A stretch of 64,000 nucleotides of DNA from IMG/VR virus record IMGVR_UViG_3300023053_000001, positions 204,459 to 268,458 of that record. One strand, given 5' to 3'. This document shows, one piece after another, positions 5,894 to 63,676 of this stretch (its first letter is position 1; each line of letters begins with the position of its first letter). Origin of the DNA: a virus. Its lineage: Duplodnaviria > Caudoviricetes. Position numbers and translations under genes: made by a program. The notes under the pieces were generated by a model. That model was not told where the DNA came from. It worked only from the letters and a program-made list of their open reading frames with translations, and did not search any database.

Positions 5894-7123
5894 TCAGCTC
5901 TGGTAGTAGTTCATGGCCAGCGTACGCAGCACGATGTACAGCTGCACGCCAGTCCGGACGCTTGCGATAGCCGCCGCGTTACGGGAGTGAATCGCCATCG
6001 ACACGATTTCTTCAGAGAGCTTTCGGGTCAACAGCAAGGTGGGGTCAGACATGCGCGAGGCGGTGTACAGTGCACGCAGTCGTTGCAGCAGGGCCGACGG
6101 ATCGGTGGTGTGGGTAGCCAGGTTGCGCTCGGCCATCATCACGCCAAAAGCATGGATCAGCGTTTCACTGATCAGCTTGTCGATCTTTTCCTGGTCACGA
6201 CCGCTGTGGTTGGAGGACATCCATTCCAACGCTTCGGTCAACGACTTCAGGGAACTGGTGGGCATGGCATCGTGGATGATGCGCGCCAGCTCAGGCCGGA
6301 CGAACGAGTTCTTGTTACTCACCACAGTCAGCGCGTAGCGGATCATGGTGGAATGGTTACGGGTCTTGTCCTTCAGCACCATGGTGCCGTCGATGTCGAT
6401 CACCGAGTTGTCGGTGCCGATGCGCCCACCCTCATCACGAACCTTGTAGAACACAGCCGTCATCGACTTGACGATCTCACGCAGACGACCCTGGATGTCA
6501 GACACCATGTAGATGATGTCCTTGTCCCGGTTGAAGTCCATGTAAGCTCGGTGGTGAATCGAGTTGGGCTGCATGATTTCGTGGGCACGGATGTTCAGCA
6601 GGTTGGACCAGCTGCCGGCCTTCTTCAGGGCGTACTTCTTGTTCAGGCGTGCGTACATGGCCTGCATGGTGGCTTCATCGGCCGGATAGCGGTAATACCA
6701 CGCCATCAGCGAACCGAGGAACTTGTACTGCAGCACCAGCAGGACATCCAGACAGCCCTGTTCCTTTTCCTTGGCGGTGAGCTTGGGTGCGCGCTGGATC
6801 GCATGCAACAGCCACACGCAGGACAGGTTCATCACGTCGTTGGCGCGCTTCCAGGCAGCGTCAATCGAGGAGACTTCCGCGATGCCGTCCACAACGGCCA
6901 GTTCATCCATGTACAGCACGTCGTTGAACCAACGTTCGCGGTCGGTAGTGCGGAATCGCATGGCATGCACGCCCATGAGGTTACCGCCGAAGAAAGCCAC
7001 GTGGTCTGCGTTGTAATTGACGAAGCCAGTCTGATACGCATGGATGCGCTTCAGTAGGGCCTGGTCGATTACAACGTCCTGACCCGTGGTGTCAAAGACT
7101 GTCTTGATCGTGACGTCAGACAT
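5894..7123 (-). CDS. Conserved phiKZ-like hypothetical protein (409 aa, helical)
   Basis: Long ORF, RBS aggaac, strong codon bias, convergent with terL. Confidence 0.75.
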   Translation of the reverse strand: MSDVTIKTVFDTTGQDVVIDQALLKRIHAYQTGFVNYNADHVAFFGGNLMGVHAMRFRTTDRERWFNDVLYMDELAVVDGIAEVSSIDAAWKRANDVMNLSCVWLLHAIQRAPKLTAKEKEQGCLDVLLVLQYKFLGSLMAWYYRYPADEATMQAMYARLNKKYALKKAGSWSNLLNIRAHEIMQPNSIHHRAYMDFNRDKDIIYMVSDIQGRLREIVKSMTAVFYKVRDEGGRIGTDNSVIDIDGTMVLKDKTRNHSTMIRYALTVVSNKNSFVRPELARIIHDAMPTSSLKSLTEALEWMSSNHSGRDQEKIDKLISETLIHAFGVMMAERNLATHTTDPSALLQRLRALYTASRMSDPTLLLTRKLSEEIVSMAIHSRNAAAIASVRTGVQLYIVLRTLAMNYYQS

Positions 7124-7179
7124 GATGGGGTTCCTAAAAGTACCACATCATTAGCTGGCAAAAACATGGATTCCACTGG

Positions 7180-7197
7180 ATTTGAGATCTATAACAC
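7180..7197 (+). promoter_or_regulatory. Candidate phage promoter ATTT(G/C)AGATCTATAACAC, copy 1
   Basis: 17/18 identical to 63709-63726; both lie upstream of the first gene of a + strand cluster. Confidence 0.6.
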
Positions 7198-7247
7198 CCC
7201 GGTGATAAGACAACTACGTCTTCCTTCCCCTACACCGGAGCCTTACA

Positions 7248-59388: not shown

Positions 59389-60240
59389 TTAATCCCCAAG
59401 GTTCGTTGCGCGCAGGGCAGCCAGCGCAGCATTGCGGAAGGTTACCGATTGGTTGATCTCGGTAAAGGTATGCGAGGCGAACTGGTCGATCACCGTTTCC
59501 ATTTCGGCACGCGGCATGGTCGCAGCCAACAACAGCGTCACCAGACACACTGCCGCATCATCAGGCTTCTGCTCGGCCACCTGATGCAGGTGATCGAGCT
59601 GACCGATCAACGTCAGGTGCAGCGGCATGCCCAGACGCATGCCTTCATCCATGCGTTCCTTCAGGTAAGCCGCACCCACCGCATTGTTGGCAGTGAACGA
59701 TTCCAGACGGTGACGGGCAGCAGCCACATCAGCCGGCGACGGTTCCAGATCGGAGGTGTTGGGCACCTTCACCGAGCTGGCATTGTCTTCGATGCGCTTG
59801 AGCAGGTCCGGGGAGACTTCACGAATGTACTGCAGGTAATCGTCGGAGTGATAACGTCCGCCCAGCACCAACAGTTCGGCAAAGATCTCTTCGTGACTCT
59901 CATCAGTCTGACAGAGAGTCAATATCGCTTCGGGGTTGTCGTAGTTGTCCAGCAACAGCAAACCCTTGAGCATGTCCACTGCGATGGGCAGGGTGATCTC
60001 ACCGCTGAACAACACACCGTACTCGTTGAGCACGCGCACATACAGCGGCAACAGGATGCCTTGCATGATGTTGGTCAGCGGATCGCCCTCCACTGAACCG
60101 GCCACGACAAGTTCATCGTCGATCGGTTCGACATGGCGCTCCTCACCCACCCACAACAGCGTCCTGCAGGCATCGAGGCACAGGTCTTTCTGCTCTGGCG
60201 TTGCAACCAGATCCAGATAAGCGTCCAGTTCGTCGAACAT
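59389..60240 (-). CDS. Conserved acidic protein (283 aa; phiKZ gp79-like position)
   Basis: RBS aggag before MFDELD at 60240; coupled to the vRNAP gene. Confidence 0.75.
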   Translation of the reverse strand: MFDELDAYLDLVATPEQKDLCLDACRTLLWVGEERHVEPIDDELVVAGSVEGDPLTNIMQGILLPLYVRVLNEYGVLFSGEITLPIAVDMLKGLLLLDNYDNPEAILTLCQTDESHEEIFAELLVLGGRYHSDDYLQYIREVSPDLLKRIEDNASSVKVPNTSDLEPSPADVAAARHRLESFTANNAVGAAYLKERMDEGMRLGMPLHLTLIGQLDHLHQVAEQKPDDAAVCLVTLLLAATMPRAEMETVIDQFASHTFTEINQSVTFRNAALAALRATNLGD

Positions 60241-60279
60241 GGTTGACTCCTTGCAATATGTCAAAAAAATACAGAAGTT

Positions 60280-60295
60280 CTTCTCATATGAGAAG
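60280..60295. promoter_or_regulatory. Perfect 16-bp palindrome CTTCTCATATGAGAAG between divergent operons
   Basis: Read directly; carries TATG on both strands. Confidence 0.5.
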
Positions 60296-60335
60296 CTTTG
60301 CTTCTTCCGAAATCACTTTCCAAGCAGGTAACAAC

Positions 60336-60800
60336 ATGTCCAAGGGTAAGCGTCAGCAACCCATCCCGCAGCCCCGGCATCAGCCTCTGAAGAACCGCGC
60401 CTGGGATGAACTCAACGAACTCTCCGATGAGACCACCCGTCTGCTGCACTCCACCATCGGTGGTGCGCGCGATGTGATCGTCAGCGCCATGGCCAATCCG
60501 GAGATCGATCCGGTGGAACGCAATGCGCTGGTCAACCTCATCGGCTCGGATTCCAAGAAGATCACCGATCGTCTCACCGCGCTGCGCACCCTGCACGTCA
60601 ATCGCACCGGCGATGCCGTCGACAGCGACGCGCTGGTGGAAACGCTGAACCTGGGCGGCCAGTACGGCGAACTCATGTCCGACATCAACCTCACGGTGCT
60701 GGCCAACACGGCGCGCCTGACGGAGATGCAGCTTCCGCCGGAAGCCCCCGAAACCGAGCCGTCCGCACCGGCTCCCGACCCCAGCAACACCGAGGCATAA
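60336..60800 (+). CDS. Hypothetical protein (154 aa)
   Basis: RBS aggt; start MSKGKR. Confidence 0.7.
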   Translation: MSKGKRQQPIPQPRHQPLKNRAWDELNELSDETTRLLHSTIGGARDVIVSAMANPEIDPVERNALVNLIGSDSKKITDRLTALRTLHVNRTGDAVDSDALVETLNLGGQYGELMSDINLTVLANTARLTEMQLPPEAPETEPSAPAPDPSNTEA

Positions 60801-60806
60801 AGCGCC

Positions 60807-62411
60807 ATGTCCATCGAAGAAGAAACCACCACGACGCCGTTCCCGCAGGAACCGACTGCGGCTGCTCCGGCAGCGGCGCCCGCTGCGGATGGTGACGCAC
60901 AGCCGGCCAGCGACGCTGCGCCGACCAAGACCCTGAAGGAACCCGAAGGTGATCCGCCGGTGATTCCGTATGTCGTGCAGGAAAACGTGCGCGTCATCCA
61001 CGACCCGTTCGACATGAAGCCCCCCAAGCCCGGCACGTTCGCCGTCTACGAGCGTCTGTCCATCCTGGGCGTGCAGGCCAGTGAAGCGGCCAAGCTCTCC
61101 GAGCACTACCCGGAAGTGGAGCTGGGCGAATCCGACGCCGAGCAGACCTGGACCGAAACCAGCGTCGAAGGCGCCAAGCACTCGCTGCAGTTCGGTACCT
61201 ACGAACAGGCGATGGCCCGTGCCAACTCGCTGTGGACCAACAGCGTCGAGGCCGAGAAGGAACGCCTGCACATCTCCCGTCCCACGTTCGAAAAGAACGA
61301 CGGCATGAAGCTGTCCGGCCAGCAGGCCGTCATGCGCATGCAGTCGCTGACCGGCATGGGTACCCATGCGCGCATCCCGCTGTGGCACACCGGCATCTGG
61401 GTCACCATGCGTGCCCCCACCGAAGCTGCGCTGCTGGAACTGGAACGTCGCCTGGGCCATGAGAAGATCCGCTTCGGTCGCGAGACCGGCGGCCTGATGT
61501 TCTCCAACACCATGGTCTACCTGATGAACTCGCTGGTGGACTTCGCGCTGGAGCACATCATCGAAGCGACGGTGGCGCACGTGGCCATCGAAGACCTCAA
61601 GGAGATCATCCTCCTGCCGGACGCCCATTCGCTGATCCACGGCATCCTGTGCACGATGTACCCCAACGGCTATCCGTACCGCCAGCCGTGCGTCATCAAC
61701 CCGTTCAAGTGCACCCACGTCATCGAAGCGAACATCTCGATCCCGCGCCTGGCCTTCACCGACCAGCTGCGCCTGACCGAATGGCAGGCTCGCCAGATGA
61801 CCCGCAAGTTCTCCAAGTTCACCGCCGATGAACTGAAGAAGTACCAGGAACAGCACACCTATCTGGCCGAGCGCGAAGTCAAGCTGACCGATCAGGTCTC
61901 CATGACCCTGTGCACGCCGACCATCGAGAAGTACCGCCAGGTCGGCACCAGCTGGATCGACTCGCTGGTCTCGCGCGTCACCCGTTCCTTCGGTGCCAAC
62001 ATCGAAGAAGGTCACCGAGCGCAGCTCATCAGTGAGCAGGGTCGCATCACCTCGCTGTGCCAGTACGCGCACATGGTCCAGAAGATCACTCTGGTCGATC
62101 GGGACGCCGAGCGCAAGATCATCACCAACGTCATCGAGGACACCCCGTCCATCGTCGACTCGCTGTCCGCCCTGACCGCTTCGGCGGAGATCTTCCAGGC
62201 GTACTACGACGGCATGAACAAGTTCATCGAAGCGTCGGTGCTGACCATCATGGCAGTACCCAAGACGCCGTGCCCGGTCTGCAGTAAGGATCATGTCAAT
62301 GACGAGAAGTACAAGGCTCAGCCCTCGCTGATTCCCCTTGACATCGTCAACATTTTTTTTACCCTCCGAGCCCGTCGGATTACCAAGACCTTGCATCTGG
62401 GCAACACGTAA
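60807..62411 (+). CDS. Tail/baseplate assembly chaperone-like protein (534 aa; phiKZ gp87-like); upstream frame of a probable -1 frameshift pair
   Basis: RBS gagg; YRQPC...CTH and C-terminal CPVC; slippery T TTT TTT near the 3' end. Confidence 0.7.
   Translation: MSIEEETTTTPFPQEPTAAAPAAAPAADGDAQPASDAAPTKTLKEPEGDPPVIPYVVQENVRVIHDPFDMKPPKPGTFAVYERLSILGVQASEAAKLSEHYPEVELGESDAEQTWTETSVEGAKHSLQFGTYEQAMARANSLWTNSVEAEKERLHISRPTFEKNDGMKLSGQQAVMRMQSLTGMGTHARIPLWHTGIWVTMRAPTEAALLELERRLGHEKIRFGRETGGLMFSNTMVYLMNSLVDFALEHIIEATVAHVAIEDLKEIILLPDAHSLIHGILCTMYPNGYPYRQPCVINPFKCTHVIEANISIPRLAFTDQLRLTEWQARQMTRKFSKFTADELKKYQEQHTYLAEREVKLTDQVSMTLCTPTIEKYRQVGTSWIDSLVSRVTRSFGANIEEGHRAQLISEQGRITSLCQYAHMVQKITLVDRDAERKIITNVIEDTPSIVDSLSALTASAEIFQAYYDGMNKFIEASVLTIMAVPKTPCPVCSKDHVNDEKYKAQPSLIPLDIVNIFFTLRARRITKTLHLGNT
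62354..62379 (+). other. Candidate programmed -1 ribosomal frameshift site plus a small downstream hairpin
   Basis: att ttt ttt acc (8 T); the -1 frame is open from 62342 into 62423-62905; tccga-gcccg-tcgga hairpin 4 nt downstream. Confidence 0.75.
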
Positions 62412-62422
62412 GCATCCGGCCT

Positions 62423-62905
62423 GTGGCCGACCCGGACGTCGATCCTCACGATCCGGGCGGTCACGTGCTGCAAGGCCGGTTCGGGTTGAATCAGATTGGT
62501 CACCCCGGACCGGCAGAGCGGCTGTTGCAGGAAGTTGGCGACGGTAAGATCAAGAACGGTTATGAGCTGCAGATGCTGCTCATGATCAACTACGATCTCA
62601 ACTACGGCATCTTCAACCACGATGACGACAACCTCAACGACCTGCAACCTCTCGCTCTGGTGCAAATGCATGAGAAAGAGAAGGTCGAGCCGCACACGAT
62701 GCTCTATCGCATGATGATGCGCTTTGGCAAATACAAGGTCTCCCAACACACCGGGATGTCTTGGCCGGAGTTCGTCCAGCAACCGCGCGATGTGTGCGAG
62801 CACTGGTTCAACGTGTGTAAGGAACTGGAAACTAAGCAGGGTCCGTCTGCCGCCACTGATAAGGCGGTGCGTGACCTGACCGCCCAATTGGATGGAAAAG
62901 GATAA
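62423..62905 (+). CDS. Downstream (-1) frame of the chaperone pair (phiKZ gp88-like)
   Basis: No evident RBS at the GTG; HTGMSWPEFVQQPRDVCEHW resembles the C-terminal part of tail assembly chaperones. Confidence 0.7.
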   Translation: MADPDVDPHDPGGHVLQGRFGLNQIGHPGPAERLLQEVGDGKIKNGYELQMLLMINYDLNYGIFNHDDDNLNDLQPLALVQMHEKEKVEPHTMLYRMMMRFGKYKVSQHTGMSWPEFVQQPRDVCEHWFNVCKELETKQGPSAATDKAVRDLTAQLDGKG

Positions 62906-62907
62906 CT

Positions 62908-63360
62908 ATGATTTCGTTTGAAGGTCAAGGGAATTTGTTCCAAAGCAAGCGTCAGACGCTGCTGTGCACTACCAACGTGGCAGGGGCCATGGGTGCTGGC
63001 ATCGCTAAGGAATTCCGCGACCGTTATCCGGAGTTGTACGAGTTCTATCTGGAACGGTTTCCTCGGGAGTATTATCCGGACCCGGCGTTGGGCAACCAGC
63101 TCTACGTGTTCCCGATCAACGATGAACAGCAATGTTTGCTTTTTCCCACGAAGATCAACTGGCGTAATCCCTCGCCGTGGAAGTTGATGTGGGATAACCT
63201 GGCTCAGCTCGCAGCGCGTTACGAAGAGCTGAGGATTACCTCCCTGGCTATGCCCCCGATTGGGTGTGGCAACGGTGGCTGGAAGTACGAACAGGTTATT
63301 CGTGCGATCCACCATCATCTGGGACCGATACCGATCGAGGTTGACGTTCTGGTGCGTTAA
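62908..63360 (+). CDS. Macrodomain ADP-ribosyl hydrolase, DarG-like (150 aa)
   Basis: TTNVAGAMGAGIAKEFRDRYP, LFPTKINWR, SLAMPPIGCGNGGWKY. Confidence 0.9.
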   Translation: MISFEGQGNLFQSKRQTLLCTTNVAGAMGAGIAKEFRDRYPELYEFYLERFPREYYPDPALGNQLYVFPINDEQQCLLFPTKINWRNPSPWKLMWDNLAQLAARYEELRITSLAMPPIGCGNGGWKYEQVIRAIHHHLGPIPIEVDVLVR

Positions 63361-63363
63361 CTC

Positions 63364-63390
63364 CCCGCCCCTTCGGGGGCGGGTTCTTTC
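63364..63390 (+). terminator. Stem-loop with UUCG loop
   Basis: cccgcccc-ttcg-ggggcggg-ttctttc. Confidence 0.7.
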
Positions 63391-63400
63391 TGAGGTCCAC

Positions 63401-63676
63401 ATGAAGATCGAGATTCATCCGGTGAACTTGGCGCTGTTCAAGGCCGAGGATGCGTTGGAGCACATCGAGGCTACCGGTCGCACTGTTCATGGGGCCATCC
63501 AGCGTTCCATGGATCAGCTAGGGAAAAACGGCACGACCAAACATCGTCCGGATGTGATGCAGCTCAACAGCCAGTGGCGGCAGTTGCGTCGACGTATTCC
63601 GGACCTGAAAGTCAAGGTTGTCCTGGCGATGCTGGACGCTGAAAAGATCAAAGACCCAACCCCCTTCCAGCTGTAA
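63401..63676 (+). CDS. Hypothetical helical protein (91 aa)
   Basis: RBS gaggt. Confidence 0.7.
   Translation: MKIEIHPVNLALFKAEDALEHIEATGRTVHGAIQRSMDQLGKNGTTKHRPDVMQLNSQWRQLRRRIPDLKVKVVLAMLDAEKIKDPTPFQL

Follow-up and report, generated by a model that had tools for sequence, protein, structure and literature searches.

A conserved T run near the end of the phiKZ gp77 gene family as a candidate −1 frameshift site in chimalliviruses

A 64,000-nucleotide stretch of DNA from an uncultured, phiKZ-like jumbo phage (positions 204,459 to 268,458 of IMG/VR record IMGVR_UViG_3300023053_000001; here referred to as the window) contains, near the 3′ end of a gene of the phiKZ gp77 family, a run of eight thymines at which ribosomes probably slip back by one nucleotide and enter a conserved downstream reading frame. 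We consider it very likely that the reading frame changes at this T run and that the run represents a conserved recoding site; that the change takes place on the ribosome also seems likely to us, albeit with less assurance. The occurrence of the slip, its efficiency, and its ribosomal rather than transcriptional nature are what we infer from comparative sequence analysis. A programmed −1 frameshift joining the two open reading frames (ORFs) had already been proposed in an initial annotation of the window and is supported here by the comparison of 86 related loci.

Slip site and reading frames in the window

The IMG/VR viral contig that holds the window sequence has a length of 190 kb and is, according to CheckV, 71% complete. 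The upstream gene (ORF1) and the features surrounding its 3′ end are listed in Table 1. Across the slip site, the ORF1 codons (62349 to 62363) read aac att ttt ttt acc, including the T8 run and the heptamer T TTT TTT that had been pointed out in the initial annotation, and all other Phe codons of ORF1 are, again as read at the time, TTC (15/15, against 0/15 for TTT). The course of the −1 frame was equally well described: past its last TGA it reads ..FFYPPSPSDYQDLASGQHVSIRP and is free of stops until 62905, and the peptide that follows this TGA, beginning with FFYPPSPSDYQDLASGQHVSIRPVADP..., takes in the ORF that was called from GTG 62423. The predicted products, ORF1 itself and a fusion of 699 amino acids (aa) and 78.5 kDa, are of the sizes given earlier (534 and about 699 aa; about 60 and 78 kDa).

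On the other strand, an antisense open frame of 711 codons (60261 to 62396, minus strand) spans nearly all of ORF1 and probably owes its existence to GC-rich codon bias rather than being a gene. A megablast search with the region against 50,697 phage genomes returned no near-identical match.

Table 1. Features at the 3′ end of ORF1 and downstream of it (window coordinates)
Feature	Position	Strand	Description
ORF1, zero frame	60807-62411	+	534 aa, 59.8 kDa; phiKZ gp77/PhiPA3 gp074 family, phrog_4585
−1-frame TGA	62339-62341	+	Final stop upstream of the shift site; the −1 frame opens 11 nucleotides (nt) 5′ of the T run
T8 run	62353-62360	+	Contains the in-phase slippery heptamer T_TTT_TTT (62354-62360)
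Heptamer codons	62355-62357 (TTT, peptidyl [P] site); 62358-62360 (TTT, aminoacyl [A] site)	+	Encode the conserved F517-F518
−1-frame extension	62360-62905	+	181 codons plus stop; predicted post-slip reading YPPSPS...DGKG, stop
Caller-annotated downstream ORF	62423-62905	+	Part of the −1 extension (62360-62905); phrog_12109
5-bp hairpin	62365-62379 (arms 62365-62369 and 62375-62379)	+	4 nt 3′ of the T run; doubtful stimulator
Zero-frame TAA stop	62409-62411	+	16 codons past the second Phe
First conserved motif of the extension, GHVLQGRFG	62459-62485	+	Family consensus HV..P.FG
C-terminal conserved motif, GMSWPEFVQQPR	62753-62788	+	Family consensus G.S..EFL.LPR
Macro-domain gene	62908-63360	+	150 aa; PF01661 (E 1.8e-6); phrog_335, "phosphatase"

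Conservation across chimalliviruses

The 86 loci comprise the window, three metagenomic relatives (67, 55, and 45% identity), LucasX, PhiPA3, the phiKZ-type phage KTN4, and 79 IMG/VR contigs with identities down to 23%. The IMG/VR relatives came from an alignment-based scan, a single-protein scan of IMG/VR for close relatives having given none. T-run lengths and the openness of the frames were tabulated for 83 of the 86 loci, while codon, start, and heptamer statistics refer to 76 distinct loci. Without exception (86/86), a run of five to nine thymines was found at the homologous, near-invariant Phe-Phe, 43 to 121 nt before the ORF1 stop, with T7 (n = 37) and T8 (n = 25) being the most common lengths, followed by T6 (n = 10), T5 (n = 7), and T9 (n = 4). 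Starting from the run, the −1 frame is open for 153 to 188 codons in the 83 tabulated loci, compared to 3 to 106 codons, mostly fewer than 20, for the +1 frame; the remaining three loci, missed by the first tblastn search and found with a profile of the downstream ORF (ORF2), have the same layout. Because the layout is conserved in all 86 related loci, chance is excluded as its origin. The distance between the ORF1 stop and the annotated downstream start varied from −4 to +218 nt among seven loci inspected, with a constant frame relation.

From the T run onward, the −1 peptides align as one conserved family, with the consensus FFYP, a variable linker, HV..P.FG ... Y...YGI..H ... PL.LV..H..ED ... 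G.S..EFL.LPR. The last of these motifs, which in the window had been likened to the T parts of tail assembly chaperones, is a real and conserved feature of the family, but nothing ties it to lambda T. In phiKZ/KTN4 (L003), translation of the −1 frame from the T7 run up to the annotated ATG would give EDSGHILHPNFGYDK, LTEDDTHLDR, and LLSTVGAVRPSTAAR, and the predicted junction peptide is FPHLIPIDMLSTFFYFGGLEVKPDGVVNDLR. In the window, an Arg-Pro bond would make the tryptic peptide across the junction very long.

In 65 of the 76 distinct loci, the run supplies a canonical T_TTT_TTN heptamer in the correct phase, and 4 more have G_TTT_TTT; most homologs share both the slippery heptamer and the −1 overlap, as would be expected from the initial proposal. 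The first Phe codon of the slip site is TTT in 76/76 loci. Counting all Phe codons at the slip site, TTT outnumbers TTC by 125 to 21, compared to 367 TTT and 752 TTC codons (33% TTT) in the rest of ORF1, and in the closest GC-rich relatives, TTT is not used at all for the other Phe residues of ORF1 (0/13 in L008 and 0/13 in L010). Judging from this codon choice, the slip site is selected at the nucleotide level, beyond the constraint imposed by the amino acids.

The match of ORF1 to phrog_4585 (E 5e-111) extends through residue 530, which identifies the zero-frame C terminus as the family's own. The zero-frame tail past the run is part of this match, and it forms the last helix (residues 513 to 533) in an AlphaFold2 (AF2) model. 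Since this tail matches the family profile, both frames carry conserved sequence and are therefore presumably both functional, as expected at a site giving rise to two products.

Directly upon reaching the heptamer, ribosomes translating the gp77-family gene would hold tRNA-Phe in both the P and the A site. The majority would stay in frame and terminate 16 codons further on, giving the 534-aa short form, while a fraction would slip back by one base, re-pair on TTT TTT, continue with TAC CCT ..., and append a conserved helical domain of 181 residues, which results in the long form of 699 aa. The modeled structure has the shift coincide with the beginning of the final ORF1 helix, which the long form would thus swap for a linker and the extra domain.

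Ribosomal versus transcriptional slippage

Several observations weigh against programmed ribosomal frameshifting at this site. First, 7 of the 76 distinct loci have a T5 or T6 run only, allowing re-pairing in the A site alone. Second, no downstream structure was found that would be shared across the family (mean z score of −0.58, with z < −2 in 16% of loci), and upstream complementarity resembling a Shine-Dalgarno (SD) sequence does not exceed the background level. Third, a start codon of some kind precedes the HV..P.FG motif in 15/76 loci, and in the window, a separate product could be initiated at either GTG 62423, with its weak SD sequence, or GTG 62465, with an SD-like one. Finally, in Escherichia coli constructs, A_AAA_AAG shifted far more readily than U_UUU_UUU and U_UUU_UUA (PMC5009743), and the efficiency may therefore be low, as it is for lambda G/GT, with short and long forms at 30:1 (Xu, Hendrix and Duda 2004, as cited in PMC5009743).

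The 5-bp hairpin that the initial annotation placed downstream of the run does exist, but it is thermodynamically unremarkable, the 90-nt fold being no better than that of shuffled sequences (z = +0.95), and it is broken in the closest relative, L008. In some other clades, stems of 8 to 10 bp were observed 1 to 8 nt past the run (e.g., UACUCAGCG...CGCUGAGUA), with z < −2.5 in several loci; these stems start about 8 nt after the run in L037, L039, L033, L036, and L063 and 1 nt after it in L047 to L060. A strong stem of this kind is absent from the remaining clades, including that of the window, and stimulators may be lineage specific.

The same 699-aa fusion would result from transcriptional slippage, with the phage RNA polymerase stuttering on the T run and adding one U in some of the transcripts. 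Chimalliviruses use unusual multisubunit RNA polymerases, and this speaks for such a scenario, as does the fact that a ribosomal stimulator was not found in the loci examined. In addition, runs of T7 to T9, present in 66/83 loci, are within the range of polymerase slippage, a phenomenon covered in PMC5009743. However, the T5 and T6 runs of the other 17/83 loci are short for polymerase slippage and provide a mild argument against a transcriptional mechanism in general, and the phase of the heptamer suits tandem re-pairing of tRNAs in 65/76 loci, even if protein constraints partly fix that phase. Taken together, we regard a transcriptional origin of the frame change as unlikely.

The stretch is contained in 16 soil "metatranscriptome" runs, 4 of which were examined (X4 to X7; window positions 60000 to 63500) and yielded contigs identical to the window, the longest reaching 73 kb. 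All four showed the T run at an unchanged length, but contigs cannot reveal minority variants, and these "RNA" libraries probably carry DNA, so that they speak neither for nor against transcription. Contigs of such length point to either much carry-over of phage DNA or a highly active phage in those soils. Two contigs from a protein look-up that appeared to be "independent" (14,762 and 62,457 bp) match RNA-library contigs X4 and X6 in length and are probably the same ones.

Start codons and called ends of the extension

Another explanation would be that of two ordinary genes, the downstream ORF having its own weak, noncanonical, or reinitiation start and the T run reflecting nothing but the conserved Phe-Phe. 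This is the annotation found in every public record examined, and in the window, GTG 62423 is located near the annotated N terminus of the family (profile position 4), at a distance of 11 nt from the ORF1 stop that suits translational coupling. The initial annotation saw no clear ribosome-binding site for GTG 62423; its SD match is indeed weak (−1.7 kcal/mol, in the bottom 21% among window genes), but GTG 62465 has a better one, in the form of an SD-like GGGCGG (−6.5 kcal/mol).

Against two genes stands the observation that, up to and including the conserved His of HV..P.FG, the −1 ORF is devoid of ATG, GTG, and TTG in 61 of the 76 distinct loci (no ATG in 70/76), with several of the first starts being located 150 to 400 nt into the domain. 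Past the conserved His, for example, the first start codon follows after 165 nt in phiKZ-KTN4 and, in two metagenomic lineages, after 402 nt (L037) and 354 nt (L044). As the extension is thus mostly without a start of its own, annotators placed starts either inside the motif (at the Val of GHVL in LucasX and at the Met within GHICMHTFG in PhiPA3) or far downstream (KTN4). Moreover, the conserved motif begins ahead of the ORF1 stop in many loci and would therefore be lost upon reinitiation, the −1 relation is kept in 86/86 loci despite the variable stop-to-start spacing, and TTT is chosen against codon usage in 76/76. We therefore attach little credence to an independently started downstream gene, even less than to transcriptional slippage.

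A search with the extension profile against 1.84 billion cluster representatives yielded 1717 clusters (50% identity) at E <= 0.001. The best 150 of these 1717 representatives have lengths of 105 to 186 aa and scattered called N termini (profile positions −26 to 60), with 101/150 beginning past the conserved His. Among the same best 150, no in-frame fusion of ORF1 and extension (a "Rosetta stone") was found, and this lack of fixed fusions suggests that both forms are needed. BFVD relatives of 686 to 687 aa are consistent with an N-terminal extension: of the 693-position profile phrog_8054, positions 287 to 655 align to ORF1 residues 131 to 499.

Finally, even though homopolymers are error-prone and the window stems from a metagenome assembly, an artifact, be it the homopolymer sequencing error already considered in the initial annotation or a decaying frameshifted gene, has a negligible probability and is already refuted by the comparative sequence data, since an identical T8 run is present in independent assemblies (contigs of three other samples, L005 to L007) and T8 recurs in the 67%-identical relative, in two separate runs (L008 and L009), which together exclude a sequencing error, and since the frame relation is the same in 86/86 loci, including cultured, Sanger-era, and Illumina genomes, with the zero-frame tail conserved and in-frame fusions missing from the best 150 representatives.

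Gene identity and neighborhood

According to GenBank notes, the ORF1 family corresponds to phiKZ gp077, PhiPA3 gp074, 201phi2-1 gp136, and EL gp47, and the downstream ORF is the counterpart of PhiPA3 gp073 and 201phi2-1 gp135; the gp87/gp88-like identity given in the initial annotation was therefore abandoned. Homologs of ORF1 were detected by tblastn in 212 phage records, all of them from phiKZ-like jumbo phages. The PHROG families matched by both ORFs have no known function, and a Pfam search assigned neither ORF1 nor the downstream ORF to a family at E <= 0.01. The AF2 models of ORF1 (predicted local distance difference test [pLDDT] score of 82.6; predicted template modeling score of 0.82) and of the extension (pLDDT of 84.6) were used for the fold searches below; the extension is predicted to be helical.

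The proposal of a G/GT-type tail chaperone pair did not survive either. At 534 aa, ORF1 is far larger than the G proteins (~100 to 140 aa), and neither a Pfam tail-chaperone family nor lambda T was matched. Rather than next to the genes for tail tube and tape measure protein, neither of which was found near ORF1 in the neighborhood examined, ORF1 is located beside genes for an RNA polymerase beta subunit of the virion type and a gp79-like product on the opposite strand, and close to a small ORF at the gp78 position and the macro-domain gene directly downstream. The latter begins 2 nt past the stop of the −1 extension, an order also observed in the closest relatives, L008 and L010; in LucasX, PhiPA3, and KTN4, no named product is annotated at this position.

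The name "gp77" also occurs in the Goslar and ChmC papers, where it denotes other proteins (in the former, a capsid decorator of Goslar, and in the latter, a subunit of the PhiPA3 virion RNA polymerase), and these were discarded. In the transposon sequencing (Tn-seq) paper on PCH45, the homolog is not mentioned under any gene number that we could derive.

A possible link to baseplate hub assembly

While the G/GT assignment failed, the idea of a frameshifted tail-assembly helper may have been right in spirit, by way of a different family, and is partly rescued because fold and language-model searches place ORF1 near gp26 and gp51 of phage T4. Based on these predicted models, we lean toward a remote relationship between the ORF1 family and the T4 gp26/gp51 baseplate hub assembly chaperones, and the function that we would cautiously favor is that of a nonvirion baseplate hub assembly factor whose short and long forms would be produced at a constant ratio.

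In a Foldseek search of BFVD, the ORF1 model retrieved its own family first, followed by more than 10 T4-like proteins annotated as "baseplate hub subunit" or "hub assembly" (E 8.8e-4 to 0.1, probability 0.87 to 1.0, template modeling [TM] score by target 0.43 to 0.61), and matches in AFDB to a "baseplate protein" covered residues ~200 to 520 with TM scores of 0.53 to 0.59. In the ESM Atlas, 86 of 100 named feature neighbors of ORF1 residues 185 to 534 were clusters with PF12322 (T4_baseplate; score 0.90), and a structural neighbor was a 542-aa viral cluster with PF12322 in 14% of its members (TM scores of 0.67 and 0.48). A homolog in GenBank record MW735835 (pPa_SNUABM_DT01) is labeled "putative baseplate hub assembly protein," citing T4 gp26. 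Because all of the models are predicted, the shared fold with gp26/gp51 is moderately supported.

Sequence-profile searches of the PDB, which holds the virion structures of phiKZ and Goslar, found neither the ORF1 nor the extension family among its chains; this absence fits a nonvirion protein. Searching PDB folds with the ORF1 model (Foldseek and VIA-align) gave helical-hairpin matches (Z <= 6) and chance hits only, and Foldseek found no PDB match for the extension model.

A relationship with the hub chaperones is called into question by the sequence profiles and by proteomic data. With HMMER, PF12322 matched none of 30 family members (E <= 1), nothing in the whole 190-kb genome (E <= 10), and none of five cultured-phage homologs (E <= 5); as a control, the same PF12322 library detected T4 gp26 at E 1e-64 and gp51 at E 4e-52. 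An hhalign comparison of the ORF1-family alignment with the gp26/gp51 alignment gave a probability of 1.5%, and with single sequences, hhalign paired CPxC...FFxLL at the C termini with a probability of 4%. Furthermore, Churi gp256, the equivalent of phiKZ gp077, is listed in a proteomic study among the proteins detected early in infection, which would be unexpected for a tail-assembly factor (PMC11849849).

The predicted fold of ORF1 appears to contain two similar modules (residues ~185 to 320 and ~355 to 520), each consisting of strand-strand-helix-helix...Cys pair (C295/C302 and C489/C492). When aligned by hhalign, T4 gp26 falls with its C-terminal module onto the first of these, while the fold matches cover both, which suggests an internal duplication of a gp26-like unit in ORF1.

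For the extension, the top ESM Atlas fold match was a 63-aa "putative Gp51" cluster with PF28602 in 49% of its members (TM score by hit of 0.61 over 58 aligned residues, a score that is not decisive for a short helical domain). An ESM Atlas feature search gave no usable match, and hhalign against the gp51 C-terminal profile returned E 0.25 and a probability of 0.2%.

Comparison with known systems

Among known systems, T4 gp26/gp51 resembles the ORF1 family in fold and language-model features over ORF1 residues ~190 to 520, in two pairs of conserved Cys residues, in a Phe-Phe that is conserved near the C terminus, and in not having been seen in solved virion structures. In T4 (L091), gp26 (6429 to 5803, minus strand) ends with ...KCPECGKTHAHVIRGLKEFFELL, three residues beyond the conserved Phe-Phe, while gp51 (6480 to 7229, plus strand) continues for ~46 residues past the equivalent DVFKLL with the Gp51_C domain; the short paralog (PF12322 only) and the long one (PF12322 plus PF28602, Gp51_C) thus parallel the predicted isoforms of gp77. 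On the other hand, sequence profiles do not connect the families, the gp77 proteins are twice as long, with an additional N-terminal part, and in T4, the two proteins come from separate genes (with an internal start, 26′, in addition) instead of a frameshift. It is tempting to speculate that a single recoded gene replaces the two-gene hub system of T4, with the zero-frame product corresponding to gp26, the frameshift product corresponding to gp51, and the slip frequency setting the stoichiometry of a chaperone pair that would build the T4-like baseplate hub of these phages, an idea that we consider doubtful. The gp26 counterpart would then be a PF12322-type body ending just past the Phe-Phe and the gp51 counterpart the same body followed by a Gp51_C-type helical domain.

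With respect to the proposed mechanism, −1 frameshifting on the ribosome, the closest parallel is T7 10A/10B (G_GUU_UUC; PMC5009743), where ribosomes slip by −1 at a U-rich heptamer located close to the 3′ terminus of the gene and, as proposed here, make a minority, C-terminally extended form beside the main product, without a classical pseudoknot nearby. Whereas in T7 a short extension is added to the major capsid protein, the extension described here is a conserved folded domain of ~165 to 185 residues on a presumed nonvirion protein, with a signal that is family-wide and known from sequence. Lambda G/GT is similar in that a nonvirion gene has a conserved −1 frameshift close to its 3′ terminus, which provides, in a fixed ratio to the short form, a long form with an extra domain and often goes unannotated, but it shares neither homology with ORF1 (none by Pfam) nor its size (ORF1 is ~4 to 5 times larger), its synteny with tail tube and tape measure genes is missing here, and its slippery site is G_GGA_AAG rather than T_TTT_TTT. 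Finally, E. coli dnaX (tau/gamma; A_AAA_AAG, PMC5009743) also has a homopolymer-type heptamer and two isoforms at a set ratio; there, however, the shift truncates the product and needs an upstream SD sequence and a downstream hairpin, while here the shift would extend it and such stimulators were not found.

Implications for the chimalliviruses

The proposed mechanism is of a known kind, programmed −1 frameshifting, with T7 10A/10B, lambda G/GT, and dnaX as examples, and would here give an isoform with a longer C terminus. A signal of this type is new for the gene family, and the site is family-wide and unannotated. In agreement with the initial annotation, which knew of no description for Chimalliviridae, none of the five GenBank records inspected contains a slippage or joined coding sequence annotation, and no published account of frameshifting in phiKZ, 201phi2-1, jumbo, or nucleus-forming phages was found, including in a 2016 recoding review and the PRFect paper, with subscription journals thinly covered, so that a prior report is possible.

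Members of the Chimalliviridae (such as phiKZ, PhiPA3, 201phi2-1, Goslar, and PCH45) are intensively studied models of the phage nucleus and candidates for therapy. Should the frameshift be real, annotation has overlooked a long isoform of a core gene throughout the family, and the downstream "gene" appears in the records as a small, truncated ORF of its own whose start is arbitrary. Proteomic databases would then lack the junction and "intergenic" peptides, and the interpretation of knockouts and Tn-seq data, core-genome counts, and structural and interaction studies of gp77-family proteins would be affected as well. The site would also provide a virus-family-wide example of U-run frameshifting without an obvious stimulator, and a role in hub assembly, if confirmed, could be the first functional handle on a protein of unknown function.

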